Positions 26,028 through 49,078 of a DNA stretch of 64,000 nucleotides are shown here, piece after piece (positions within the stretch are counted from its first letter, which is position 1; each line of letters begins with the position of its first letter). Where the stretch lies: positions 30,212 to 94,211 of the forward strand of contig VIKI01000004.1 in assembly GCA_008080595.1 (NCBI GenBank), read 5' to 3'. This DNA comes from Comamonadaceae bacterium (GTDB lineage Bacteria > Pseudomonadota > Gammaproteobacteria > Burkholderiales > Burkholderiaceae_C). Below the pieces are notes generated by a model. The model made no database searches. It was given only the letters and a program-made list of their open reading frames with translations, and was not told the origin of the DNA. The position numbers were made by a program, and so were the translations under genes.

Positions 26028-26810
26028 ATGACACCCTTGATTTTGATCACTGGCGCTTCCAGCGGAATTGGCCAGGCCATGGCCTTGCACTACGCCCGCA
26101 AAGGTGCACGTCTGGCCCTGACGGCGCGTCGCACAGACACCATCAAATCGTGGCTTGATGCTCATGGAATAAGCGCAAGCAGCTATGAACTTTATAGTGC
26201 AGATGTTGCCAACATCGACAGCATGGCCACATTGGCACAAGACTGCCAGAAACGCCAGGGAATTCCTGACGTGGTGATTGCCAACGCAGGTATCAGCCTG
26301 GGTGTGGATTCTTCTGAGCGCGCGGACCTGGATGTCATGGCACGTATTTTGGCCACCAATGTCATGGGGGTTGCGGCCACCTTTGGCCCATTCATCAACG
26401 CCATGCGTGCACGTGGTTCCGGCACACTGGTTGGCATAGGCAGCGTGGCGGGCATTCGGGGTCTGCCTGGGCATGGTGCTTACTGCGCCAGCAAGGCGGC
26501 AGTGATCAGCTATTGCGAAAGCTTGCGCGGTGAATTGCGCACCAGTGGTGTCAAAGTGGTGACGATCTGCCCTGGCTATATAGCGACACCACTGACTCAG
26601 AACAACAGTTATCGCATGCCGTTTTTGATGCAAGCAGACGCATTTGCCCAGCAAGCCGTGCGAGCCATTGAGGCCGCTGACAGCTATTGCGTGATCCCAT
26701 GGCAAATGGGCGTGGTGGCCAAATTGTTGCGCATGCTGCCAAACGCTTGGTTTGACAAATTGTTGGCTGGGCGGCCGCGCAAACCGCGGAAAACCGATTC
26801 GGCGCAATGA
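26028..26810 (+). CDS. SDR-family oxidoreductase
   Basis: TGASSGIG, NAG, YCASK. Confidence 0.92.
   Translation: MTPLILITGASSGIGQAMALHYARKGARLALTARRTDTIKSWLDAHGISASSYELYSADVANIDSMATLAQDCQKRQGIPDVVIANAGISLGVDSSERADLDVMARILATNVMGVAATFGPFINAMRARGSGTLVGIGSVAGIRGLPGHGAYCASKAAVISYCESLRGELRTSGVKVVTICPGYIATPLTQNNSYRMPFLMQADAFAQQAVRAIEAADSYCVIPWQMGVVAKLLRMLPNAWFDKLLAGRPRKPRKTDSAQ
26145..26198 (-). repeat. Element R5, inside SDR gene (antisense)
   Basis: Reverse strand ACTAT-AAAGTTC-ATAGC-TGCTT-GCGCTT-ATTCCAT-GAGCAT-CAAGCCAC-GATTT. Confidence 0.8.
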
Positions 26811-35757: not shown

Positions 35758-35768
35758 GGGGCTTGAAT

Positions 35769-35824
35769 ACTATTGTTTTGATAGCTGTTTGCGCTTGTAT
35801 GATAAGCGCTAGAGGCCAATTTTG
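35769..35824 (+). repeat. Element R6 (near-consensus, between dctB and GNAT)
   Basis: ACTAT-TGTTTTG-ATAGC-TGTTT-GCGCTT-GTATGAT-AAGCGC-TAGAGGCC-AATTTTG. Confidence 0.9.
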
Positions 35825-35848
35825 TTCATAGAAATGGCTTCCAAAGCC

Positions 35849-36346
35849 TCATTTCAGCCCCTTGCTCAGCACCACGCTGCGATACACCTTGCCAGACCAC
35901 TGGACAAAACCAACATGCTGGTAGCCCAGGCCGGTGTACAGCGTGATCAGGTGCTGCGCTTGCTCGGCGGTATCCATGGCCAGCTCGGCAAATCCGTGCG
36001 CCAGTGCCCACTGCTCGCAGGCCAGCAGCAGGGCTCGCCCAATGCCTTGCCCCTGGCAAGCGGGGTCAACCGCAAACTGATGAACAGCGGCGACACCGGG
36101 CCGGGTGAAGTAGGCACACTCATTCACGTCGTAAGTCGGCTTCACCACAATCGTGCCGGCCATCTGGCCAGCCACTTCGGCCACAAAACACTGCCCGCCA
36201 GCCAGACGCTGGGCGGTGACTTCTGGGGTTTGATCGACAGCGGTGTAGTTGAGCCCCATCGCACCCAGGCGGGCGTAGGCGCGATGCAGCAAGTGGGTGA
36301 GGTCAAGCAGGGAGTCGTTGGGCTGAAGGGGGCGGATCGGGTGCAT
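35849..36346 (-). CDS. GNAT N-acetyltransferase
   Basis: QFAVDPACQGQGIGRALL acetyl-CoA motif; start MHPIRP. Confidence 0.88.
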   Translation of the reverse strand: MHPIRPLQPNDSLLDLTHLLHRAYARLGAMGLNYTAVDQTPEVTAQRLAGGQCFVAEVAGQMAGTIVVKPTYDVNECAYFTRPGVAAVHQFAVDPACQGQGIGRALLLACEQWALAHGFAELAMDTAEQAQHLITLYTGLGYQHVGFVQWSGKVYRSVVLSKGLK

Positions 36347-36423
36347 GGGCTGGCGTTCTGTGGATGCCGTGATTCTATGAATCTGCCCCAGGGTGACGGC
36401 CTGCACCAAGCCTGCGCCAACAA

Positions 36424-36776
36424 TCACTCGGCTGGACGACTCACAGCGGCTACCGGCCCGCCGGACTCCAGCACCCCAATGGCGTAGTTGGCCAGCGCCT
36501 GGTCGGCCCTGGGCGAATGGGCTCGGCCTTTGGCTTTGGTTTGGTAGGCCTCGGTGGCTTCCTTGCCGCACCAGGGCAGGATGATGCTGGGTGGGGTCGG
36601 GTGCTCGGGCAGGTAGGCGCTCAGGTCGTACACCGCACTTCGGCCAGAGCAATACCGTGGGGTTTTTCTGGCATGGACTGCCGGGGTGCTGGCGGTGTCA
36701 GCCAGGCCACAAGCGCCAGCGCGATCAGCGCCAGCCAGAAAAGGCCAGTCCCGATGAAGAAGAGTTTGCGCATCAT
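36424..36776 (-). pseudogene. Membrane-anchored cytochrome b5-domain protein with internal deletion/frameshift near 36635
   Basis: MMRKLFFIG...IALAEV, then out of frame VYDLSAYLPEHP...WCGKEATEAY...HS; the b5 HxxxxDCW segment is absent. Confidence 0.78.
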
Positions 36777-38035
36777 CGAAAGTCAAACCGTTCAAAGTGA
36801 ATGTGTGGCGTGGGCACACCACGCTGGCGCAACACGGCCACCGCCGCGTTGATCAGACCAGCCGGGCCACACAGGTAGCAGTGGCAATGCTTCAAGTCTT
36901 CGGTGCTGGGCAACAAGGCAGGCAAATCAGGCAGGCCCTTGTCACTCGCCACCAGCTGCAGGCTGAGTTGGGGCTGATGACTGGCCAGTTCGCCCAGCTC
37001 ATACCGGTAAGCAGCGTCAGCCTGGTTGCGGTACAGGTACATCAGCCGCACCGCCTGGGTCAATGGGCCGCTGCGCAATCTGGCCAGAAAGGGCGTGATG
37101 CCAATACCTCCGGCCAGCCATAGGCTCGGGCCATCGACGCTGGCGCACATGAACTCGCCAAATGGCCCCTGTAGCCGCACAGCAGTACCCGGCGCAACAG
37201 CTTGAATATGCCGGGTGCAATCACCCAGTGCCTTGATGCCCAGCGACACATGGCCGTCCGGGGCGATGGCACTCAGGGTATAGGGGTGGTATTCGCCACA
37301 GCCCTGAAAACCGGGGCCCCTGAAAAACGCCACCACCACAAACTGCCCCGGCTGCGCGGTGATAGACCGGGCCAGCGGCCGCAACGACACTTCGACCAGG
37401 TCTTGCGTCTGGCGTGTCACCTGGTTGACCACATAGGGTTGGGCCGCCAGCCCGCAATCGGCGCGCAACAAGCGCCACAGCAAGAAAAACAGGGCCAGCA
37501 GCGGGGCCAGGATGAGGGGGGCCTCCAAACCCAGCAGCACCAGATGGGCACCACCCAGCAGCACCGAGAGTGTCAGCACATGGTGCAGCTTGCGCCAGCT
37601 GGCATAGGCCAGCCTGGGCGACAGCGACAGCATCAAACCCGCCATCATGCCCACCAGCGAGCCCCAGCCCAACCACACCGGCCAGCTTTGCTGCCAGGGG
37701 TCAAGGGCGGACCAGGCCTGCGCGGCAGACTCCTGCCACGCATCAGCCGCCAGGGCCAGCGGATGCAGCAGCAAAAACAGGTACGCCCCGATGCCCAGGC
37801 GGTGATGCCAGAGGTACATCGGCTCCAGGCCACCGAGTCTGGCGGCCAGCCAGGGCTCACGGATCATGAGCAACAAGCTGGCCAGCAGCAGGCCGGAGCC
37901 GATCCAGCCCGTCACGATGGCCATGCTGCGCCAGAAGCTGAGGTCCTGCGGAAAAGCCCAACCCACCAGTGTGCCCACCAGTGCCACCGTGATCAGGTGG
38001 ATCGGTTGGGTGCGCAGCAAACGAAAGGCCGTCAT
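36773..38035 (-). CDS. Ferric reductase-like transmembrane + FAD/NAD-binding oxidoreductase
   Basis: TM His motifs WHHRLG and WRKLHH, YHPYTLS, AGGIGITPF, CGP, ERFDFR. Confidence 0.88.
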   Translation of the reverse strand: MTAFRLLRTQPIHLITVALVGTLVGWAFPQDLSFWRSMAIVTGWIGSGLLLASLLLMIREPWLAARLGGLEPMYLWHHRLGIGAYLFLLLHPLALAADAWQESAAQAWSALDPWQQSWPVWLGWGSLVGMMAGLMLSLSPRLAYASWRKLHHVLTLSVLLGGAHLVLLGLEAPLILAPLLALFFLLWRLLRADCGLAAQPYVVNQVTRQTQDLVEVSLRPLARSITAQPGQFVVVAFFRGPGFQGCGEYHPYTLSAIAPDGHVSLGIKALGDCTRHIQAVAPGTAVRLQGPFGEFMCASVDGPSLWLAGGIGITPFLARLRSGPLTQAVRLMYLYRNQADAAYRYELGELASHQPQLSLQLVASDKGLPDLPALLPSTEDLKHCHCYLCGPAGLINAAVAVLRQRGVPTPHIHFERFDFR

Positions 38036-38053
38036 GCTTGTCTTGCCGGAGGG

Positions 38054-38335
38054 TTATTGGCGCGCTTTGTCAGCCGACCAATGTGCGCAGAAATCGCGGC
38101 GATTCAGGCGCAACGGCTGCCCCTGCGCCTGGGCACGTGCCAGCATCCGTTGGTGGTGTTCGGCCTGGTAGGCCCGGCAGGCTTCCAGGGTCTTGAGGCT
38201 GCGGAGTTGGCTCTGGTGCTCAAGGCGCTCCTGCGGTGACATGAGATGCCAGCCGCTGGTATCGCCTTCGCTGGCACGCAAGGGGCCACGCGCCAACACT
38301 GGGGCACTCATCACCAACAGCCACACCACCATCAA
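38054..38335 (-). CDS. Small exported hypothetical protein
   Basis: Signal-like N-terminus, GWHLMSPQERLEH...C...C; co-directional with the reductase; start uncertain. Confidence 0.65.
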   Translation of the reverse strand: MMVVWLLVMSAPVLARGPLRASEGDTSGWHLMSPQERLEHQSQLRSLKTLEACRAYQAEHHQRMLARAQAQGQPLRLNRRDFCAHWSADKARQ

Positions 38336-38531
38336 ACACCGTGCGGATTCTTTCCGGATGTTTCAACGATTGTGCGGCGAACGGTTCGCCACGAACCACG
38401 AATGCATCAACTTTGTGTGCATCATGCCGGGGCCCCAGCGGCCCCTGGCAATCCAAGGAAAAGACACGGTCTACTTCACCACAACCGCCGTGCTGTCCGT
38501 GGAGGTCAGGCCCGCTCCCGGCGTATGAATG

Positions 38532-38587
38532 CCGCGTTGTTTTGTAGCTGCTTGTGCTTGTTCTGAATGCGCTGTTTGCGGGTTCAC
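38532..38587 (+). repeat. Element R7
   Basis: CCGCG-TTGTTTT-GTAGC-TGCTT-GTGCTT-GTTCTGA-ATGCGC-TGTTTGCG. Confidence 0.75.
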
Positions 38588-38666
38588 TGCCACCGTTCGC
38601 AGCTTGCGGTGCTCCTGCAAGGCCAGGATAAGCTAACTATGGGCTTGTTCGCTTATCCGCGCTGGA

Positions 38667-38915
38667 TCATTGCTTGGTGGCCGCAGCTTTTTTATCTGCT
38701 GCCGCTTTGCGCTTGTCGGTCACGAGTTTGACGCATTGGGCGATTTCCTTCTTGTCTCCATCAAGCACTTCTTCACAGCATGTTTTTATGTTTCTTTTGT
38801 CCTTGTAGCACTGTTTGGCTGCATAGTCTGGATCAGCCGAATCAGCCAAAGACAGCTGTGCGAAGGTGGTCAGTGACAAGCCCAAAATGGCCGCAGTGAC
38901 GAATTTTCCAGTCAT
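38667..38915 (-). CDS. Small secreted Cys/Lys-rich hypothetical protein (82 aa)
   Basis: AAAGGAG RBS, signal peptide ending SLA, four Cys. Confidence 0.7.
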   Translation of the reverse strand: MTGKFVTAAILGLSLTTFAQLSLADSADPDYAAKQCYKDKRNIKTCCEEVLDGDKKEIAQCVKLVTDKRKAAADKKAAATKQ

Positions 38916-39076
38916 TTGAATACTCCTTTTAAAAACTACTGTTTGGTCAATGTCCACGTAGAGGTGATGGCAGTACGTGCATCGCCATCGCGAGCGTGTC
39001 GCCAGGAATGATGTGCCGTCGGGTCGCCACTGGTTGACCGCGTGCGCCGTACATCAGTGATTCAAATCCGAAGTGG

Positions 39077-42000
39077 TTACGATTTTGTGTTGGCGGTGGG
39101 TGTTGAGTTGGCGACTGGCTGCAGATTCCAGATTTCGACACAGTTGCTTGCCAAATTACAGCTTCTGTTGCTGGTCGTCAGTCTGTAATCGACACCCAAG
39201 TTAACAGTGTCGCTGCCAGAGATACCGCTCATTGCCCCGGTGAGTTTGACAGTTTGCTGATCCGCAATTTGCTGGGTTTTCTTATCTGTTTTGGTCCACA
39301 CACCTTGGACTGGCAGACTTACAAAATCAACCGAACCGCGCATGGTCGCTGGTAATGCGGTTGGCACAGTACCGCCGGCAGTTCCGATTTGACCAAAGTG
39401 CCCATATTGATAACCAGAAGCAAAGGCTGGATTTTGCGTTGGCGATGCCGTGTTGATGCCAGACAGCTCGTAGTCGTAGTTGGTGTCAAACCATTTTCCG
39501 GACATGGTTGACGTGCAGTTGTCGGTCAATTCAACCCAGTTCAGGAAACTGAGTTTGGCAGCCGACTTCAGATCATTGCGGCTGAAATTGACACTGCCGG
39601 TGGTGCGTACCGGGCAGGAAATATCAACCTTGCCATTCGGGTAGGCATTAGGCACAAAAGACTGCGTGATGGTTCCAGCCCATTGGGTAAGTGGCACCGG
39701 AAAACTTTGCAAGCCTTGGGTTTCAACGACCATAGGCCCGGCCAGGTTGGCAATGGATGCCGTGTTGATTTTGACTTCCCAGGGCAACCAGCTCCCTGGC
39801 ACCGCAGTCTGTTCCAAACCGTTGATAAAAATCTTTCCGGGTGTCTTTCCGAAGCTGTTGTCGTGGGCACTTACCGTGAGGGTGTAGACGTTGGTGCCTT
39901 GTGATGTCACGGTATTGGGTGGGTCGACATGAATGCCCGAAATGCTGGGCAACAGCGTCGCGTTGATCCCGGTACCCTGGACTACTAATTTCGCGGGTGA
40001 CGCAGGCGCTTCGTTGGGAGAAAAAACAGAGGTGTCGGTGGTTATTTTCAGCGTGTCGCGCATGTAATTAAAAATCGACGTGGCAGGCATGGGGCGTGCC
40101 GGTGGTGTCATGCTCAAGCTGTCACCGCGTCCCAGGGCGTAGTCATAAAACTTGGCTGCAGTTGTCGCGGCCCAATCTGCGCCAACTTCCTCATCAAAAC
40201 CAATCAAATTGACGGCATGGTTGGCGGTCTTGCTCTGCAGGGTAGACAGAAAGTTGAGCCAATTCATGCCGTCTTTGTAGAGCTCGCAGGCATCCACGTA
40301 GACCCAGGCATCTGCCGCAAAAGTCCAGTGCCTACGGATAAAATTTTTGCTAATGGCCCAATAGACATAGCCACCTTTTACCTGCGTTAATCGCAGATCG
40401 CCCTTATCCCAGAGACGCCCTAGTTCTGTCTTGACCATCTCGCTGTAGGGCGGTGTCTCTTTACCCATGAAGTGGTCGGCAGTGGCAAGGTAATAGCTTG
40501 GGTTTCCCCAGTGATCGGCTGAGTTGAAGCCATGGGTATCCAGGTGCAGCACAGAGACATCCTTCATGTCCGCCATGAGGTCGGCAACGAAGCTAAAAGA
40601 AATGCCTGCTTTGTACCCGGCCTGTTGAAGCCAGCCTGTCAATTGCGTAGGAAAGCCACGGCCCAGGCCATCGACATCCACCATCACAGCGCGTTTTTGG
40701 GTTGGACTAGGGCCACTTGCCGGTGCAATGGCCGCTACAGTTTTTGTCGTCAGGCTGGCCGTTGTGGATGTCGCTGTAGCCTTCAACGCAGTTGCCGGCG
40801 GGGTGGTCATCAGCCACGAGGTACCACGGCCGTCCTTGAAGCGCGCCCACACCGTGGAGTTGGAGCCAATGCCTGCGTCGGCAAATTCTGGCAGTGTGGG
40901 TATAAATGCCACCAGCTCAGCGCTGTCAGTGGCGACATTGCCCGTCGCCACCTGAGTCAAATGGTTACTGACTTTGGCCATGGCGGCCAGGCGTTCATCA
41001 AACGTCATGGAGACTGGCATGCCGCTCATATTCTTTGCAACAGCGAACATTGGACTGATGATTTCAAAGGTCAATGTCTGGGTGTTGGATGCGCCGTCTT
41101 TGTCGCTGGCCGTGATCTGGACACTGTAAGCCCCCCCCATCATGGCCGTCGGACTGGTGGCAGATGGCGTACCAGAAATCACACCGGTGCTGGCATCCAG
41201 CAGGATGCCCTCTGGCAGCGCACCATCGGTAATGGTGTAAGTCAGTATCGGGTCACCATCGGTCGCCGCCACATAGTTGGCCAGGCTCAGGTTGGCAATC
41301 GGTGTGCCAACCGCGCTCTCGATGTCTGGCAGCTCAGCCAGTATGGGCGGTATGGCTGTGGCAGCTGATGACACAGTAAACGCAATGGTCTTGGATACCG
41401 AGCTGCCATCTTTGTCGATCGCATTGACGGATGCACTGTAAGTGCCAGCTGCAGTGGGTATACCATCAATGATGCCCGTCAAAAGGTTCAGCCCCAAGCC
41501 GGGTGGCAAGCTGCCAGCCGAAAGCGTAAATCCCATGGGGTCACCGTTTGTCTGCGTGGCAAAGCCGGTCAGTCGCAGTGGTTCGCTCGCTGTACCTACC
41601 GTTGCGACTTGCGCCGGAATATCACTCATGAGCGGTGGCGATGTGGTGCTGACGGGCGTAGGCCGATTGATCCAGATGCCTTGGTTTGCCGCAATTGGCG
41701 TGGTACCAAAGTCCAGGTAATTGCGGCTGGTGATGTAACTGGCGAGACCACCACTGGATGCCAGGCTGGGCGCATAAAACAACCAGTTGTTCAGTGCGCT
41801 GTCCCAGGCCCACAGCGTGGTGACATTGCCCAGCAGCGATGTCAGAGCGGGGGCCGACAAGCCATCCGAAGTTGACGACAAATTCCACCCGGAAGTCAAA
41901 TTGGCAGCAGACAGCGAAAAGCCGATGCCGGACTGGCTGCCCAGGTCCAGTGGCAGTGCCGAGCTGTTGTTGACCCAGTAGCCTTCTCCAGGCTGAATGG

Positions 42001-42322
42001 TTGTCAGAACGCCATAACCTTTGCCAGCGGCATAAGTACTTAAGGTGCCGGCACTTTCCAGCGAGGGGGCGTAAAACGCCCAACTGCTTGTGCGGGCATT
42101 CCAGGTCCAGACTGAAGTGACACCTGGCTGGGCACCAAAAGTCTGTTTAACGTCGATGGGTGTGGTCAAACTATTGCCAAGCAGAGTCCATCCCTTGGCC
42201 AGGGTGAGCGGGTAAGACACCGGTGCAGCGCAGGCATTGGAGCCCCATGTCAACGCGGCGCAAAGCAGGCCACAAGCAATCACTGGATATACAGTGAGTT
42301 TGAATCGGATAGCTTTTACCAT
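39077..42322 (-). CDS. Large secreted protein: duplicated Trp-rich N-terminal domain, two putative Ig (He_PIG-like) domains, clan-CD-like peptidase motif region
   Basis: Signal peptide; GW...W.W...W.FYAP twice; LPPGL...GIIDGIP and LPEGI...GVISGTP; VLHLDTHG...VYVDAC. Confidence 0.8.
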   Translation of the reverse strand: MVKAIRFKLTVYPVIACGLLCAALTWGSNACAAPVSYPLTLAKGWTLLGNSLTTPIDVKQTFGAQPGVTSVWTWNARTSSWAFYAPSLESAGTLSTYAAGKGYGVLTTIQPGEGYWVNNSSALPLDLGSQSGIGFSLSAANLTSGWNLSSTSDGLSAPALTSLLGNVTTLWAWDSALNNWLFYAPSLASSGGLASYITSRNYLDFGTTPIAANQGIWINRPTPVSTTSPPLMSDIPAQVATVGTASEPLRLTGFATQTNGDPMGFTLSAGSLPPGLGLNLLTGIIDGIPTAAGTYSASVNAIDKDGSSVSKTIAFTVSSAATAIPPILAELPDIESAVGTPIANLSLANYVAATDGDPILTYTITDGALPEGILLDASTGVISGTPSATSPTAMMGGAYSVQITASDKDGASNTQTLTFEIISPMFAVAKNMSGMPVSMTFDERLAAMAKVSNHLTQVATGNVATDSAELVAFIPTLPEFADAGIGSNSTVWARFKDGRGTSWLMTTPPATALKATATSTTASLTTKTVAAIAPASGPSPTQKRAVMVDVDGLGRGFPTQLTGWLQQAGYKAGISFSFVADLMADMKDVSVLHLDTHGFNSADHWGNPSYYLATADHFMGKETPPYSEMVKTELGRLWDKGDLRLTQVKGGYVYWAISKNFIRRHWTFAADAWVYVDACELYKDGMNWLNFLSTLQSKTANHAVNLIGFDEEVGADWAATTAAKFYDYALGRGDSLSMTPPARPMPATSIFNYMRDTLKITTDTSVFSPNEAPASPAKLVVQGTGINATLLPSISGIHVDPPNTVTSQGTNVYTLTVSAHDNSFGKTPGKIFINGLEQTAVPGSWLPWEVKINTASIANLAGPMVVETQGLQSFPVPLTQWAGTITQSFVPNAYPNGKVDISCPVRTTGSVNFSRNDLKSAAKLSFLNWVELTDNCTSTMSGKWFDTNYDYELSGINTASPTQNPAFASGYQYGHFGQIGTAGGTVPTALPATMRGSVDFVSLPVQGVWTKTDKKTQQIADQQTVKLTGAMSGISGSDTVNLGVDYRLTTSNRSCNLASNCVEIWNLQPVANSTPTANTKS

Positions 42323-42549
42323 TTCTTCTCCTTATTGTGATGCTGAGACTGTCATGCAACTTTGCACCCGTTTCTGGATAGGGGGATGCAAGTTGTCTCA
42401 GTAAGGAAGGGAATCCCGCCCGCCCCGCACATAGTTGGTCATGTCAAGAAATGATGGTAGGCGGCATGGCCTGTTTCTCCTATAGTCCATTCAGACTAGC
42501 TCGCAATAAATGCTTGCAATGGGGACGCACTCAGGAGTAAGTTCGCTGC

Positions 42550-43167
42550 ATGTTGAACGCCAAAATTTTGCTGATTGACGACCATGCCATGTTTCGCACC
42601 GGGCTGCGCATGGTGTTGAATTCGGGCTTGCCCGATGCACAGATCGTTGAAGCGGGTTCGCTCAACCACGCCCTGCATCACGCACCTGAGATGCCGGACA
42701 TCGTTCTGTTGGACATCAAGATGCCAGGGCTGAGTGGGGTCGAAGGAATCGCTTTGCTCAAGCGCAAATGGCCGCAAGTTCCAGTGCTGATGCTGTCATC
42801 TCAGGACGAGCCAGAAACGGTGCACCTTGCAATGACCAGGGGTGCGGCAGGCTTCATTTCAAAGGTCGATACCGCCGACCACATCGTCGAAGTCGTTGTG
42901 CGCATCCTGCAGGGTGAATTCACCGAGCCCTTGGTTCAAGCGTTACATCACGAAAATCTGGTCGATACACCGACGCATTTGACTCCACGCCAATGCGAAG
43001 TGCTCGAGTTGTTGAATACCGGCATGTCGAACAAACTGATCGCCAAGCATCTATCGCTTTCTGAAAATACCGTGCGTGTGCATGTGCAAGGAATACTGGA
43101 GTTTTTGCAGGTGTCTGGCCGTTCCGAAGCTGTTTTTGTCGCACGCCAACGCGGCCTGCTGGGTTGA
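42550..43167 (+). CDS. NarL/LuxR-family response regulator
   Basis: IDDH receiver, LTPRQCEVL...SNKLIA...TVRVHV. Confidence 0.92.
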   Translation: MLNAKILLIDDHAMFRTGLRMVLNSGLPDAQIVEAGSLNHALHHAPEMPDIVLLDIKMPGLSGVEGIALLKRKWPQVPVLMLSSQDEPETVHLAMTRGAAGFISKVDTADHIVEVVVRILQGEFTEPLVQALHHENLVDTPTHLTPRQCEVLELLNTGMSNKLIAKHLSLSENTVRVHVQGILEFLQVSGRSEAVFVARQRGLLG

Positions 43168-43197
43168 TGAGGGGTACACGTTCTGAAGCTGACACAC

Positions 43198-44999
43198 TTG
43201 CTGCAGTTGGATGAGGATCGCTTTCTGGTCGAGCAGTTGCGATTGATCTTGGGTAACGTGGCCCGCACCGTCATCCCGGTCATTTCGCTGGCGATATTGT
43301 TGTGTGTTTTCCTGTCCAACGACAGCAATGCATGGGCGCTGAGGCTGTGGACTGTAGCGGCCATTGCATCCAATCTGAATGGCTACTTCTACACGCGGCG
43401 CCAAGTCCTTGGTGGCATTCCATCCGAACGGGCGCATCACATCGTCTGGATGCTGATGCTCCTGACGGCCATTGATGGTGCACTCTGGGCGGCATTGCCC
43501 TGGATCACCTTGGATACCGCCAGCCCGGCTGGCAGTATTCTGGTGGTTTCGGTCATTGCAGGCATGGCAGCCGGTGCCATGGCGACACAGTCTCAGGTGC
43601 TGGTCGTGTTCATTGCCTGTGTGATCCCGGAGATCGGCATTTCTGCCATGAAGGTTTGGCTTCGCTTCTCGGTGGTAGCCAATACCAGGCGCTGGCAATA
43701 GCCGCAGCGCTGTACCTTGCCGCTTTGCTGGGTCAGGCTCGCAACACGGCACAAGCCACACGTGCTGCCATACAACTGCGTTTTGACAACACCGAGTTGC
43801 TGGAACAACTGCGCTTCAAGACAGCGGTGGCCGAATCAGCACGACTTGAAGCCGAAGCTGCCAACAGTGCCAAATCAAAATTCCTCGCAGCCGCCAGTCA
43901 CGATTTGCGCCAACCGATCCATGCCCAGGGGCTATTTCTGGCCGTTCTTGCTCGCACGGAACTGACACCCCACCAGCAGGTGCTGCTCTCCAATGCACGC
44001 GCTGCGTCTGCCGACTCGAGGGACATGCTCAACAAGCTGCTGGATTTTTCGCGCATTGAAGCCGGTGTGATTGAGCCCAATCTGCAACCGGTTGGTTTGC
44101 AGTCACTGCTGCACAAGATTGAACGCGACCTTGCACCCCAGGCCAACGAAAAAGACCTGGTCTATCGCTCGCGTGAAACGCATCTATCGGTTCGCTCTGA
44201 TCCGGTGCTGTTGGAATTGATTTTGCGCAATCTGGTGTCCAACGCCATCCGTTACACCGAGCGCGGCGGAATTTTGGTGGCATGCAGACAACGCGGCGAT
44301 CAGGTGGTGCTGGAGGTCTGGGACACCGGCATGGGCATTGCCATCGAACAACAGCAAGCCATCTTTCGGGAATTTCACCAGTTGGGCAATCCGGAACGTG
44401 ATCGCAGCAAGGGACTGGGTCTTGGTTTGGCCATCGCGGAGCGACTGACGCAGAGCCTTGGACATCGCTTGTCGCTGGTGTCCACACCGCAACGTGGCAG
44501 CGTGTTTCGACTTGCCTTGCCTCTTGTGGATAGTACCCTGTCAAATCAACTGGAGCCCACGGCGCACATTCCGGTGCGCTTGCTGAACGCGCGGGTTCTG
44601 GTGGTGGACGATGATGCAGCGGTATGTTTCGGCATGCTCCATTTGCTGCGTGATTGGGGTTGCATCTGCGTCGCGGCGCAGTCCATTGAGGAAGCTCTGG
44701 TCATTGCCAATGAGCAAGCGCTTGACCTGCTCATTTGCGACTATCGCCTGCGCGGACACCGTACCGGTTCGGAATGTATCGTCGCTTTGCGAGCCCTGCT
44801 CGGGCAGGACAAGCCCGCACTGCTCGTCACCGGCGACACCGCACCCGAGCGCCTGCGCGAGGCGCAAGGCAGTGGCATACCGCTGTTGCACAAACCTGTT
44901 TCCCCTGGCCAGTTGTACCGGCGCTTGGTTGAGATACTTGAAGCCACGGCACTTGCCCCCGAAAGGGCACCCTCAGCTCCAGTTGCAACGCCCCACTAG
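43198..44999 (+). pseudogene. Membrane hybrid sensor kinase split by a 5-bp duplication
   Basis: GCTTC-GCTTC at 43659-43668; removing one copy gives continuous KVWLLGGSQYQ, joining the TM part to SHDLRQP/HATPase/receiver. Confidence 0.85.
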
Positions 45000-45126
45000 G
45001 CGCAGGTTGAGGTGCGTTACAGCTCGGATGTGCTGGCCGCTTTTCGCTCACGGGCGCAGGCTGGCAGACGTACCGAATCGCGGCTGGTGCCGCTCCTGCA
45101 AATGCCATCTCAGACATCTAAAAAAT

Positions 45127-45182
45127 AATATGATTTTGCTAGCTTGTTGCGCTTAACTGACAAGGCCTACAGGCTAATTCAA
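45127..45182 (+). repeat. Element R8
   Basis: AATAT-GATTTTG-CTAGC-TTGTT-GCGCTT-AACTGAC-AAGGCC-TACAGGCT-AATTC. Confidence 0.8.
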
Positions 45183-45549
45183 TACCGGCAGTACGGCCGT
45201 GCCGTTCACCATGAGCTCTGGCGGGGTCACGTCCAAAGGTGAACTGACATTTGGCTCCTGTATTTTCACGATCACTGAATGGCCTGTAGGTGCTAAGCTG
45301 ACCCCTCCACGGGTCTACACCATTCCCACGGAAAAATGCAAGATGACGGTGAATACCACCAATGCCAAGGCCGATGGCTCCACGGCTAACCGGGATGTCA
45401 CCTTAACGATTGGGCGGGAGTTAGGCAATCCGTTTCCATACCCGATCACAGTTGCCGCAGATGGGACTATCCGCGTAGTGGCCAATGGTAAGTCCTTCGC
45501 TACGCCACTTAAAGGTACCGTTGTTCAGATCACCGGCGCTGGCAACTGA
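45178..45549 (+). pseudogene. Probable 5'-truncated fragment of a beta-rich, Thr/Gly-rich exported protein gene
   Basis: Frame opens at the tail of R8 (FNTGSTAVPFTMSSGG...TFGSCIF); no RBS or signal peptide. Confidence 0.55.
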
Positions 45550-45658
45550 TCAAGCCACCTCCTGAACGGTCAAGGCAGCATCTGCACTTTGACCGTGACG
45601 CGCTGCCCTGAAGGCCAGACCTGCCAGGGCATCGCCACCCCTCTCCCACTCCACCCTC

Positions 45659-45790
45659 TCACGCCGCCCAGTGCCCGAGCGTGAACGCCTCCTCCAACAC
45701 CGAGTAGCCCGCCCAGTCACTGTGGGCAAAGTTCAGGCGCTCATGGGTGATTTGGAAGCACTCTTATTTTTGTAGCTGCTTGCGCTTATT
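45659..45790 (-). repeat. Diverged duplicate of the 3' end of the FAD oxidoreductase gene (direct repeat of 47447-47578)
   Basis: 132 bp, 10 mismatches by manual count; encodes ...FAHSDWAGYSVLEEAFTLGHWAA*. Confidence 0.95.
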
Positions 45791-45815
45791 AGACAAGCGC
45801 CAGAGGTCCATTTGA
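45760..45815 (+). repeat. Element R9
   Basis: ACTCT-TATTTTT-GTAGC-TGCTT-GCGCTT-ATTAGAC-AAGCGC-CAGAGGTC-CATTTG. Confidence 0.9.
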
Positions 45816-45941
45816 ACATCAACATGAGACTCGAAATCAACTGTGGCTTGCGCGTCTTGAGTCTGATCTCAAGGCCATCCCATAAACTCTGTGGGTCTGG
45901 CACCTGGATGTGAACCCGCTGTCCTTTTAACGCCCAAATTC

Positions 45942-45997
45942 ACGATGAAAACAGTAGCTGCTTGCGCAAGTGCAGCCTTGGCTGGAGACGAAAAATG
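45942..45997 (+). repeat. Element R10, abutting the AlbA_2 gene start
   Basis: ACGAT-GAAAACA-GTAGC-TGCTT-GCGCAA-GTGCAGC-CTTGGC-TGGAGACG-AAAAATG. Confidence 0.75.
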
Positions 45998-47434
45998 CAC
46001 TCAATGTCCGTGACCACCCTCCAGGCTCTGGTCGCCAAAGGTGAATCTGTGACGCTGGAGCTGAAAAAGTCCACCGCCGAAAAAGACCGCGCCTGTCGCA
46101 CCCTGTGTGCTTTTGCCAATGGGCAGGGCGGGCAATTGGTGTTTGGGGTTACGCCTGCGGGCAAGGTGATGGGCCAGCGCGTCACCGACCGCACGCTGGA
46201 AGAGCTGGCGCAGGAACTGCAAGGCTTTGAGCCGCCACTGTTTCCCCGCGTGCAGCGCATCCAAGTGGCCGATGGGCTGGAGGCCTTGCTGCTGGCGGTT
46301 GACCCCGCCACGCATGGGCCGGTGTCGTTTCGCGGTGTGCCCTATGAGCGGGTGCTCAACACCACCCGCGTGATGTCGCGCAGCACCTACCAAGCCCTGT
46401 TGCTTGAATCGTTACACGCCAGCCAGCGCTGGGAAACCCAGCCTGCCCCTGGCTGGAGCGTAGACCAGTTGGACACGCGCGAAATGGTGTTGACGCTGGA
46501 AGAGGCCATCCGCCGGGGCCGCAGCGTTGACCCCGGCACCCGTGACCCGCTGGAGATTTTGCGCGGGCTGGGGCTGCTGGTGGCGGGAGGGCAAGTGTCC
46601 CGCGCTGCGGTGGCCTTGTTTTGCCAGGGTGAGCAGCCCTTGCCCGATTTCACCCAACTCACCTTGCGCCTGGCCCGCTTCAAGGGGCGTGAACGCAACG
46701 AGTTTTTGGACAACCGCCAGTTTCACGGCAACGCCTTTGAGCTGATGCGCCGGGCCGAGCGGTTTTTGATCGACTGGTTGCCGGTGGCCGGGCGCGTTGT
46801 GCCAGGCCAGTTGCAGCGGGAAGACACCCCCAGTTTGCCGGTGGAGGCGCTGCGCGAAGCGCTGGCCAACGCCTTTGTGCACCGCGACTATGCCAGCGGC
46901 TCTGGAGCGGTGGCGGTGGCGCTGTTTGATGACCGGCTGGAAATCATTTCGTCAGGAGAGTTGCACTTTGGCCTGACCCCGGAGATGCTGTTCCAGCCCC
47001 ATGAATCCCGTCCCTGGAACCCGTTGATTGCCAGCGTGTTTTATCGGCGTGGTCACATCGAGAGCTGGGGTCGGGGCACATTGAAATTCATTCGCCTGAT
47101 GCAAGAGGCCGGGCTGACTCCACCCACACTGAAGGTGCAGGCGGGCTTTGTGACGGTGACGTTTGCCTTGCCCACCAGCCTTGTGCCCCGCATACAAGAC
47201 CGCACCTCTGGAAAAACGTCGGTGAAAACGTCGGTGAAAACGTCGGTGAAAACGTCGGTGAAAATTTTGGCCGAGGTACGCGAAAACGCGCAGATCACCA
47301 TTCCAGAGCTGGCCGCGCTGCTGGGCATCAGCACCCGCTCGGTGGAGCGCCAGTTGCGCCAGTTGCAGAACAACAAGCGCCTGGCGCGTATCGGTGCTGC
47401 CAAAGGCGGGCACTGGCAGGTGGTTGACCCATGA
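45995..47434 (+). CDS. Schlafen/AlbA_2 + HATPase_c_4 + HTH protein
   Basis: GESVTLELKKS, AFANGQGG..VFGV, REALANAFVHRDY, DDRLEIIS, IESWGRG, C-terminal HTH and GAAKGGHW. Confidence 0.88.
   Translation: MHSMSVTTLQALVAKGESVTLELKKSTAEKDRACRTLCAFANGQGGQLVFGVTPAGKVMGQRVTDRTLEELAQELQGFEPPLFPRVQRIQVADGLEALLLAVDPATHGPVSFRGVPYERVLNTTRVMSRSTYQALLLESLHASQRWETQPAPGWSVDQLDTREMVLTLEEAIRRGRSVDPGTRDPLEILRGLGLLVAGGQVSRAAVALFCQGEQPLPDFTQLTLRLARFKGRERNEFLDNRQFHGNAFELMRRAERFLIDWLPVAGRVVPGQLQREDTPSLPVEALREALANAFVHRDYASGSGAVAVALFDDRLEIISSGELHFGLTPEMLFQPHESRPWNPLIASVFYRRGHIESWGRGTLKFIRLMQEAGLTPPTLKVQAGFVTVTFALPTSLVPRIQDRTSGKTSVKTSVKTSVKTSVKILAEVRENAQITIPELAALLGISTRSVERQLRQLQNNKRLARIGAAKGGHWQVVDP
47213..47260 (+). 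repeat. In-frame 12-bp tandem repeat x4 (KTSV)
   Basis: AAAACGTCGGTG four perfect times in the linker before the HTH. Confidence 0.95.
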
Positions 47435-47446
47435 ACCCGCGCTGCC

Positions 47447-49078
47447 TCAAGCCGCCCAGTGCCCCAGCGTGAACGCTTCTTCAAACACCGAGTAGCCCGC
47501 CCAGTCGCTGTGGGCAAAGTTCAGGCTCTCATGGGTGATTTGGAAATACTCTGATTTTTGTAGCTGCTTGCGCTTATTCTGAAAGCTCTGAAGGCCAATT
47601 CCACCATCCATATTGGGCACCGGCACAGCCATCGCGTGGCCGTAGCGGGTGAGGTCGATGCGGCGGGTTTTGGCGGGCAGATCGGGGTGAGCTGCGCAGA
47701 GCTCGGCCAGAATCGCGTCGCGCCAAGTTGCCCACGGCTGCTCCAGCAGCAGGCGGCGGCCCGCGTGGCCCAGCGCCTCACCTGCACCGCCCAGATCACC
47801 CAGCGCCCGGTAATAGGTCAGAACCGTGGCCCCTGACACGCTTTGCAGGCTCTGGTGCATGGCATCGACATAGCCCAGGCCCGCGGCCCCATACAGCACG
47901 TTGTCCCAGCTCGGCGGTGCGCCGGGGCGGTCGTGCAAGGGCTGCTGGAGCTGAATATTGGCCACCAGCCACGGCGCGTAGACCGTGCGGGCCGCGGCCT
48001 GGCGCAGCCAGTCGGGCGGATTTTGCAGCACCCGGGCGGCCATAAAAATCGGCAGCGCCACAATGGCCCGGCGGGCTTGCCAGCGCTCCACGGCTTGGGT
48101 GGTGGTGTTGAACACATCCACCTCCACACCGTGTTTCAGGTTGGTCACGCGCAGCACCACCTGGCCGGTGTGCAGGCGTTGTTGCAAGGGGGCGGCCAGG
48201 CGGCGGGTGAGCCAGGCGTTGCCCTCGGGCCAGGTCAGCAGGCCTTCGCGCTCGGCGCTTTCCACACCCGGCGCAGCAAAGCCGTGGCGGCTGGCAAAGT
48301 AGTGGATACCGGCCCAGGCCGACACCTGGGCCAGCCCGGCCCCGTAGTCGTCACGGCAGCAGTAGTTCAGATACCAGCGCAGCTGCGGGTCGGTGAGCTG
48401 GTGCTGGTTCAGCCACGCTTCAAAAGTGAGAGCTGCCAGCGCTTGTTTAACGGGAGTTACAGGCGACTTTGATGCAGGCATGCTCCAGCGCTCGGTACGC
48501 CGCAGCTGCTCGATCCGCTGGGCGAATTGCCGGTATTGCGCCAGGGTGTCGGCCGCCACACCGTGCTGCGGCAGCAAGCCGTCTTGCCATTCGCCGTCGA
48601 AATACAAGCGCTCTTGCGGGCTGTGGCACAGGTGGCGCTCGTCATAAACCCAGCGCCCGGCCACGCGGCGGCGCAGGCCCAGCTCTTCCAGCAAGTCTTG
48701 CACTTCCCAGGCATCGTCACCCGGCAAGGGCAGGTAATGCGCGCCCTGCGGGCAGGCCATACCGCCCAGCTGCCCGGCACGGCTGTTGCCACCGGCGCTG
48801 TCTTCCAGCTCCAGCAGGGCAAAGTCTTCGATGCCTTTGAGTCGCAAGCCGCGGGCGGCGGCCAGGCCAGCCACACCGCCACCAGCAATCAGCACATCGG
48901 TCTGGCGCGTGCGGCTGGGGGTGGGCCAGGCCTGCGCTTTTTGCAGCAGGTGACCGCGCGCATGCCCGATGCCGGTGAAGCCACCGCTGATGTGGGCCCC
49001 ATCGGCCTGCGGCTGGCAGGCCGCCAGGGGCAGCAGGGCGGTGCTTAAAAACTGGCGTCGGTACATGGTGGGAGGCAT
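47447..49078 (-). CDS. FAD-dependent oxidoreductase (amine oxidase-like), Tat/lipoprotein-type signal
   Basis: RRQFL...LAAC, GGGVAG, GAHYLP, YCCRDDYG, FAHSD. Confidence 0.88.
   Translation of the reverse strand: MPPTMYRRQFLSTALLPLAACQPQADGAHISGGFTGIGHARGHLLQKAQAWPTPSRTRQTDVLIAGGGVAGLAAARGLRLKGIEDFALLELEDSAGGNSRAGQLGGMACPQGAHYLPLPGDDAWEVQDLLEELGLRRRVAGRWVYDERHLCHSPQERLYFDGEWQDGLLPQHGVAADTLAQYRQFAQRIEQLRRTERWSMPASKSPVTPVKQALAALTFEAWLNQHQLTDPQLRWYLNYCCRDDYGAGLAQVSAWAGIHYFASRHGFAAPGVESAEREGLLTWPEGNAWLTRRLAAPLQQRLHTGQVVLRVTNLKHGVEVDVFNTTTQAVERWQARRAIVALPIFMAARVLQNPPDWLRQAAARTVYAPWLVANIQLQQPLHDRPGAPPSWDNVLYGAAGLGYVDAMHQSLQSVSGATVLTYYRALGDLGGAGEALGHAGRRLLLEQPWATWRDAILAELCAAHPDLPAKTRRIDLTRYGHAMAVPVPNMDGGIGLQSFQNKRKQLQKSEYFQITHESLNFAHSDWAGYSVFEEAFTLGHWAA
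47548..47603 (+). repeat. Element R11, in frame near the FAD oxidoreductase C-terminus
   Basis: ACTCT-GATTTTT-GTAGC-TGCTT-GCGCTT-ATTCTGA-AAGCTC-TGAAGGCC-AATTCC, encoding IGLQSFQNKRKQLQKSE. Confidence 0.88.
48417..48472 (+). repeat. Element R12, second copy in the FAD oxidoreductase
   Basis: GCTTC-AAAAGTG-AGAGC-TGCCA-GCGCTT-GTTTAAC-GGGAGT-TACAGGCG-ACTTTGA. Confidence 0.7.

Follow-up and report, generated by a model that had tools for sequence, protein, structure and literature searches.

In a 64,000-nucleotide stretch of the genome of a Comamonadaceae bacterium (assembly GCA_008080595.1, contig VIKI01000004.1, positions 30,212 to 94,211; hereafter, the window), seven copies of a short repeat, designated R6 to R12, lie consecutively on the plus strand between positions 35769 and 48472. 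A first-pass annotation of the sequence had read these copies as the boundaries of a cassette array, served in trans by a dispersed, integron-like gene capture mechanism. We propose instead, with a probability of about 0.8, that all seven are unexceptional copies from a high-copy repeat family of ~65 to 70 bp. Two rearrangement scars lie at these copies, one at R8 and one at R9/R11, and both are best accounted for by ordinary recombination between dispersed repeats.

Two rearrangement scars at element copies

The scar at R9/R11 surrounds a rare accessory gene that combines AlbA_2, HATPase_c_4, and HTH domains (here, the AlbA_2 gene), which is followed by the gene for a FAD/NAD-binding oxidoreductase on the opposite strand (Table 1). 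The stretch from 45658 to 45790 is 92% identical to that from 47446 to 47578 (133 nucleotides, 10 mismatches), and this duplication runs from the oxidoreductase stop codon through the 32 codons before it into the element that the gene carries within its reading frame, of which it takes in the left half. The homology between R9 and R11 stops in mid-element, at 45790 and 47578, respectively, and R10 and the AlbA_2 gene lie between the two tails. Seven of the 10 mismatches fall at third codon positions (binomial P of ~0.02), an excess which implies that the two oxidoreductase tails diverged as working genes in separate lineages. The ancestral arrangement is one in which a lipoprotein gene and the oxidoreductase gene converge on each other. 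Inside the in-gene element of the oxidoreductase there now lies a segment comprising, in order, the right half of an element, a spacer, R10, the AlbA_2 gene, an oxidoreductase 3' end, and the left half of an element; this insert restores the oxidoreductase gene and displaces its old 3' end.

The second scar is the truncation of the lipoprotein gene, which falls exactly at the right edge of R8. The surviving fragment is 57% identical to residues ~97 to 190 of a full-length paralog of ~205 amino acids, encoded at ~11.55 to 12.17 kb of contig C51, in which the signal peptide and the lipobox are retained. Across the genome, intergenic ends of intragenomic homology blocks lie in or beside elements in 44 of 475 cases (9.3% versus 5.3% expected), a mild 1.7-fold excess that is partly inflated by BLAST extension through the shared element; for block ends in coding sequence, the observed and expected values are the same (0.61% versus 0.61%). 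The claim that DNA is exchanged at the elements finds support locally, in the lipoprotein gene cut at R8 and in the displaced tail joined to foreign DNA within R9, but not in its wider form of a genome-wide capture system.

We postulate that the R9/R11 scar arose in a recipient that carried the convergent lipoprotein and oxidoreductase genes. This cell would have taken up DNA from a related lineage that already had an element, the spacer, R10, and the AlbA_2 gene beside its own oxidoreductase gene. One crossover might then have occurred in the homologous oxidoreductase gene and the other in the conserved core of ~25 nucleotides that the recipient's in-gene element shares with the upstream element of the donor. 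Such a process would be a form of ectopic or homology-facilitated recombination, in which the elements might act as portable homology, in the manner of repetitive extragenic palindrome (REP), Correia, or insertion sequence (IS) copies, rather than as dedicated recombinase sites.

The seven copies and their clustering on one strand

A profile built from copies taken from the window's own genome (G000, of which the window's contig is C243) recovered, in an nhmmer search, six plus-strand copies of the ~70-base repeat in the interval. The remaining copy, R7, was detected only by repeat and 17-mer searches and is missed by the profile at an E value of <0.01; the 17-mer TAGCTGCTTGCGCTTAT has nine matches in the window at up to three mismatches, against 0.22 in shuffled sequence. 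The run of seven consecutive same-strand copies reported in the first-pass annotation is thus real, and the nearest copies outside it, at 26160 and 50915, are both on the minus strand. Five of the seven are degenerate, and R6 and R9 alone fold better than their shuffled counterparts, the other five giving z scores between -0.9 and +1.2 (Table 1).

Table 1. Element copies and other features of the interval, in window coordinates
Feature	Position	Strand	nhmmer E value	Fold z score	Description
R6	35766-35832	+	2.8e-15	-2.7	Full, well preserved; two small hairpins; between dctB start (35757) and GNAT stop (35849)
R7	38540-38574	+		-0.7	Degenerate, left half only; in the 1-kb gap from the ferric reductase gene to the Ig-repeat gene
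Lower-GC3 block	39077-44999				Ig-repeat protein (-), LuxR-type response regulator (+), hybrid histidine kinase (+); Pfam
R8	45129-45179	+	4e-7	0.07	Degenerate; 3' of the histidine kinase gene; right edge marks where the next gene fragment is truncated
Lipoprotein fragment	45178-45549	+			5'-truncated; ~95 N-terminal residues missing, including signal peptide and lipobox
tail'	45658-45754	-			Displaced copy of the last 32 codons and stop of the FAD-oxidoreductase gene
R9	45759-45815	+	4e-12	-2.1	Chimeric; left half runs on from tail', right half from the imported AlbA_2 segment
R10	45945-46004	+	3e-4	+1.2	Weak copy immediately 5' of the AlbA_2 start
AlbA_2/HATPase_c_4/HTH gene	45962-47434	+			Rare accessory gene; Pfam
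FAD/NAD-binding oxidoreductase	47447-49078	-			Carries R11 and R12 in frame; Pfam
R11	47545-47602	+	4e-9		Within the oxidoreductase open reading frame; antisense in-frame reading (GLQSFQNKRKQLQKSE...)
R12	48416-48473	+	2e-4		Weak element-like stretch within the oxidoreductase open reading frame

The density of copies in this interval is that expected of a randomly scattered repeat. Counts per 12.7-kb segment of the genome have a mean of 1.93 and a variance of 1.92, as in a Poisson process, and segments with at least six copies make up 1.0% of the total, against a Poisson expectation of 1.4%; they form seven regions, of which this interval is one. Of 586 pairs of adjacent copies, 326 lie on one strand, and there are six other same-strand runs of at least seven copies in the genome, where coin flips on those contigs would give 1.1. 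The seven copies also depend on one another: R9 arose as a by-product of the duplication that links it to R11, and R11 and R12 share one gene, in which only stop-free frames survive. We accordingly regard the same-strand run as a coincidence, aided by a weak regional strand bias, by the R9/R11 duplication, and by the avoidance of stop codons in the two in-gene copies. With one copy per 6.5 kb, chance "arrays" of the repeat are to be expected, and, because the copies lie mostly in gaps between genes and a fifth of them in frame inside genes, any 13-kb stretch rich in short genes and remnants will look "punctuated."

The repeat family in the genome and in the Comamonadaceae

The genome (5.42 Mb in 322 contigs, 57.7% GC, 89% complete) holds 833 profile matches at an E value of <1e-3, 418 on the plus strand and 415 on the minus strand, with a family consensus of approximately TTGCTATAAATTTAATAGCTGCTTGCGC-N8-AAGCGCTAGAGGCCAATTTT. 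Relative to a home-made gene call (4,526 genes, 85% coding), 66% of the copies are intergenic, compared with 15% of the genome. Positions after gene 3' ends are favored; convergent gaps receive 30% of the copies while making up 13% of gaps, and divergent gaps are underrepresented. A further 162 copies lie deep within strong open reading frames (at least 150 nucleotides from the start and at least 60 from the end), 120 of them in two frames that yield recurrent peptides. Orientation shows a weak tie to gene direction (177 versus 131) and a weak correlation with GC skew; a polar KOPS-like motif was considered and rejected, as the orientation was just 46% versus 53% across the GC-skew sign.

Among 533 near-full copies, the mutual information between alignment columns does not exceed 0.12 bit and no link is seen between the palindrome arms, of which the left is conserved more than the right. 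A function as a hairpin or RNA was rejected on account of this lack of covariation. The only strongly overdense region of the genome (G000 C96:4442-11813) has thirteen copies per 12.7 kb, arranged as plus/minus pairs ~145 nucleotides apart that recur every 1 to 3 kb with paralogous flanks 75 to 92% identical.

The family is not confined to this genome: an exact 18-mer is found in Acidovorax, Comamonas, Rhodoferax/Albidiferax, Polaromonas, Giesbergeria, Extensimonas, and others. Counts of the core at up to two mismatches in 18 species of the genus, which are lower bounds because of sequence dialects, reach 227 here and range from 0 to 58 elsewhere, with background levels outside the genus. A 2017 motif survey (PMC5217627) lists two uncharacterized motifs, GCTTAT(N)5AAGCG in Acidovorax ebreus and ATAGCT(N)22CAAAAG in Polaromonas naphthalenivorans, both mainly intergenic and frequently in convergent gaps. 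These two motifs are pieces of the element described here. Apart from this survey, no named Comamonadaceae REP or miniature inverted-repeat transposable element (MITE) was found in the literature.

Comparison with strains and species

An exact match to the oxidoreductase protein led to a contig in ENA (L005), which is of the same strain (no mismatches and three small indels); an exact look-up with the AlbA_2 protein gave no match. The stretch is also present in four metagenome runs. Three of these, from groundwater and from one study (X1, X2, and X4), represent the same strain, and the fourth (X3), a drinking-water run from another study, contains a strain that is ~97% identical (its contigs, ~96 to 99.7%). 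The contigs of X3 leave no bin uncovered between 33 and 52 kb and span R6, R7, and R10 in the same order. The first-pass annotation had envisaged modules that are separately gained and lost, and had named their co-inheritance as the result that would speak against it; at the distance of X3, the modules are collinear across these three copies.

Two further features emerged from these comparisons. In contigs of all three groundwater runs, 36967 is joined to 39219 with 22 unrelated letters between them; the ends of this join are not at elements, the depth in X4 is above that of the strain, and the join probably comes from another organism. From 47469 to 47852, within the oxidoreductase gene, X3 differs by ~9%, compared with 0.3 to 4% in adjacent pieces, and one of the two strains may have acquired this stretch by recombination.

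At the species level, the neighbors of the oxidoreductase, GNAT, dctBD, and kinase homologs differ in nearly every species searched, and the relatives are too rearranged for breakpoints to be placed relative to the elements. The sole recurring order is that of regulator, kinase, and element in genome G005, where the element lies 3' of the kinase homolog in the same place and relative orientation as R8. Full-length orthologs of the oxidoreductase occur in four species at 65 to 71% identity. In the ortholog of G010 (71% protein identity), elements occupy both in-gene places (L001 1929-1987 and 2787-2848), with E values of 4e-7 at the place of R11 and 5e-10 at that of R12, the latter stronger than R12 itself. 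In the protein alignment of the four species, the stretch encoded by R11 varies and is 15 amino acids shorter in G004, and the R12 stretch is constant in length across the orthologs.

RAYT genes and known repeat systems

The genome encodes two REP-associated tyrosine transposases (RAYTs), on contigs C14 and C231, both of which we considered as the enzyme that mobilizes the element. The first (G000 C14:1600-2600, L015; NCBIfam REP_Tyr_transpos, 149 bits) has a classical GTAG REP pair, GTAGGAGCGGCGG.AGCCGCGA, on both sides. This REP has ~100 copies in the genome, at times directly beside the 70-nucleotide element as a composite, and the gene was rejected as the mobilizing enzyme because its cognate REP is a different one. 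The second, RAYT-like gene (G000 C231:5200-6400; L014/L016 and L017-L027) is single copy, 70 to 84% identical among relatives, and kept in 17 of the 18 genus genomes irrespective of the element count; a role for it in mobilization is unsupported. Inverted copies of AATTGGGGTCAGATTCCAATT, a sequence with only 9 copies in G000, lie on either side of it in many species. In G000 its flanks carry a low-copy palindrome, and one element copy is found next to it in this genome (at its 3' end) and in some relatives. After the gene lies a sigma-54-type promoter, TGGCAC-N5-TTGCA, for the next gene.

In REP/REPIN families most copies are paired; here, of the 586 pairs of adjacent elements, no more than 32 are separated by 100 nucleotides or less. 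As for MITE-type termini, the first 25 nucleotides match the reverse-complemented end at 11 of 25 positions at best. The two flanks share an 8-mer in 13 of 293 copies, where shuffled pairs give 5.3; target duplication is thus not general.

Several parallels are suggested by known systems. Like the REP, bacterial interspersed mosaic element (BIME), and REPIN sequences of enterobacteria and pseudomonads, the element is short, high in copy number, mostly extragenic, and enriched 3' of genes and between convergent ones; it has a palindromic core starting with G/ATAG, and its copies probably serve as substrates of ectopic recombination. Copies of the known elements also act as join points of duplications. 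The element differs from them in its greater length (65 to 70 nucleotides), in its asymmetrically conserved sequence, in the near absence of anything but singletons, in the fifth of its copies that lie in frame within genes, in the lack of hairpin covariation, and in that the RAYT on C14 is flanked by a different REP. With the Rickettsia palindromic elements, it has in common in-frame read-through in intact conserved genes, with stop-free frames only, as is seen in the 162 deep in-gene copies (120 in two frames) and in R11, which adds 15 amino acids relative to G004. Unlike those elements, it is mostly intergenic, it differs in sequence and host group, and some of its in-gene copies, such as R12, add no length.

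The R9/R11 scar has parallels of its own. As in integrative islands whose insertion rebuilds the 3' end of the target gene (attL/attR scars) and in the homology-facilitated illegitimate recombination of transformable bacteria, displaced native and incoming 3' ends flank the insert, one junction lies in a short shared sequence, and the other side has long homology. The AlbA_2 insert differs in being just 1.8 kb long and in having no integrase within it or nearby, and its short shared sequence is a copy of a dispersed repeat and not a dedicated att core.

Neighboring genes and base composition

The gene content given in the first-pass annotation agrees with the Pfam results, which recover as modules dctB/dctD with TRAP transporter genes; GNAT with a ferric-reductase-type flavoprotein; a 1,081-amino-acid Ig-repeat protein with a LuxR-type regulator and a hybrid kinase; the AlbA_2/HATPase_c_4/HTH gene; and the FAD/NAD-binding oxidoreductase. 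At gathering scores, Rfam models match one tRNA across the window and nothing else. The region from 38.6 to 45.6 kb had been described as more AT-rich. This holds relative to its flanks, with a GC content of 0.53 to 0.59 at 38 to 46 kb versus 0.60 to 0.67 alongside, and a GC content at third codon positions (GC3) of 0.61 to 0.63 in the block of Table 1 versus 0.76 to 0.79 in neighboring genes; however, the genome means are 0.577 for GC and 0.69 ± 0.08 for GC3, so that the block is near the mean and the departure lies in its GC-rich flanks.

In this assembly, five extra bases, GAAGC, at ~43659 to 43663 break the hybrid histidine kinase gene into two reading frames (43656-43701). These bases are absent from L005, which has a single kinase gene of 598 amino acids, and from contigs of X2, X3, and X4, and are probably an assembly error or a strain variant. 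The true start of the AlbA_2 gene is probably near 46010; in L005 the gene is called at 475 amino acids. Near its 3' end is a 12-nucleotide tandem repeat of the ACGTCGGTGAAA type (47204-47264, four to five copies), in which this assembly differs by one unit from L005 and X3. A metagenome scan with the Ig-repeat protein yielded one distant contig (L150), which encodes a version 79% identical to the first 225 residues; its surroundings are different, an element lies 40 nucleotides 5' of the start, and the match is uninformative. A genome from another family of the same taxonomic order, which lacks the element (L008; G027:C2:472-476 kb), has dctD and dctB at 70% and 57% protein identity, respectively; its dctD DNA is 72% identical, nearer than that of most genomes of the same genus.

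Alternative explanations

Several observations weigh against recombination between ordinary repeats as the history of this interval. A circle integrating at the in-gene element would give the R9/R11 product just as well as a linear double crossover. The history of the block is read from a single genome, since every strain at hand has all of the modules. For this single cluster, the same-strand run is a ~3% event. The low-GC3 block is bounded by the co-oriented R7 and R8, as insertion of a circle via element-by-element recombination would leave it. Contigs such as those of the four metagenome runs, in which no joint at any element was seen, are blind to rare excised forms. Finally, AlbA_2 homologs occur in 2 of the 150 family genomes searched, and one of these, from another genus (L148, G135:C1:1279986-1284398; 69% identical), has three co-oriented copies within 3 kb. 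The copies in G135 have the opposite orientation relative to the AlbA_2 gene from those in the window, and neither the locus in G135 nor that in G076 has an internal duplication scar.

A first alternative is that the element is a maintained signal of the host, such as a binding site for a nucleoid or chromosome protein, a 3'-end signal, or a DNA-uptake-type signal, rather than a substrate of recombination; its position at gene borders would then stem from that role, and its coincidence with the two scars would be fortuitous. The enrichment after 3' ends and in convergent gaps, which recurs in the PMC5217627 motifs, would fit such a role, as would the copies held at the same place across species (in the oxidoreductase of G010 and 3' of the kinase in G005), the R12 copy that covers codons without a change in length, the preservation of the left half and core as sequence in the absence of pairing covariation, and the lack of terminal inverted repeats and of general target duplication. 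We nevertheless consider this unlikely, as the orientation is only weakly tied to gene direction, the core copy number is ~4- to 200-fold apart among species of the genus (a difference inflated by the dialects), and both of the two local scars break at an element, next to the 1.7-fold excess of intergenic homology-block ends. The two views are moreover compatible, for a maintained motif would still supply homology at which recombination could occur.

It is also conceivable, at a much lower probability, that the element is the site of an undescribed enzyme acting in trans, with DNA between co-oriented copies leaving as a circle and reentering at any copy, including those in genes. The AlbA_2 insert would then be one event and the R7-R8 block another. 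If this were true, there would be a genome-wide capture system with hundreds of sites distant from their integrase.

Least probable, and in our view barely tenable, is the integron-like form of this scheme put forward in the first-pass annotation, in which the enzyme encoded elsewhere excises circles between co-oriented copies and inserts them at other copies that act as cassette boundaries. Integron arrays do share with the interval co-oriented short repeats that separate unrelated genes, and an insertion junction within a repeat. To the seven co-oriented copies may be added the AlbA_2 insertion, with its breakpoint within an element and the 3' end of its target restored as in attL/attR scars, the gene truncated exactly at the edge of R8, the low-GC3 block between R7 and R8, and the co-oriented elements that flank the AlbA_2 gene in a second genus. 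However, the IntI, attI, Pc, and attC architecture of integrons is lacking. In the assembly, which is 89% complete and may thus miss an integrase that the organism has, the best match to the integron integrase model TIGR02249 scores 94 bits against a cutoff of 265. The contig of the window has no match to Phage_integrase, Y1_Tnp, rve, DDE_Tnp_1, or Resolvase, in agreement with the earlier remark that the window lacks a recombinase or transposase, and none of the five PF00589 matches in the genome lies on it. Whereas attC sites are imperfect inverted repeats with RYYYAAC/GTTRRRY cores and fold in single-stranded form, the consensus contains no GTTRRRY-type core on either strand, the five degenerate copies fold no better than shuffled sequence, and the 533 near-full copies of the family show no covariation. 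Cassettes mostly carry one promoterless gene each, in a common orientation; here, the intervals between copies hold genes on both strands, in some cases several, along with gene fragments and a three-gene block that includes a kinase with its own response regulator. R11 and R12 lie within a conserved reading frame, not at module borders, and are old copies common to another species. The independent strain is collinear, the family is spread evenly over the genome at Poisson-like density, and the GC3 jump over gaps with an element equals that over gaps without one (P = 0.39, genome-wide), leaving no compositional signal. Thus, with the test of strain variation set apart, the interval departs from a cassette array in each test of membership that was run, and its interpretation as one is not supported.

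Implications

Gene capture through hundreds of dispersed sites would be a new route of gene acquisition in bacteria; the evidence says that it is not at work here. What the locus does offer is a clear and datable case in which a rare accessory gene entered the chromosome through a junction inside a copy of a Comamonadaceae repeat, with restoration of the gene that it interrupted. It also cautions readers of such genomes that chance arrays of this repeat are to be expected. More generally, it shows that an uncharacterized repeat found across the family can offer portable homology when relatives exchange DNA.

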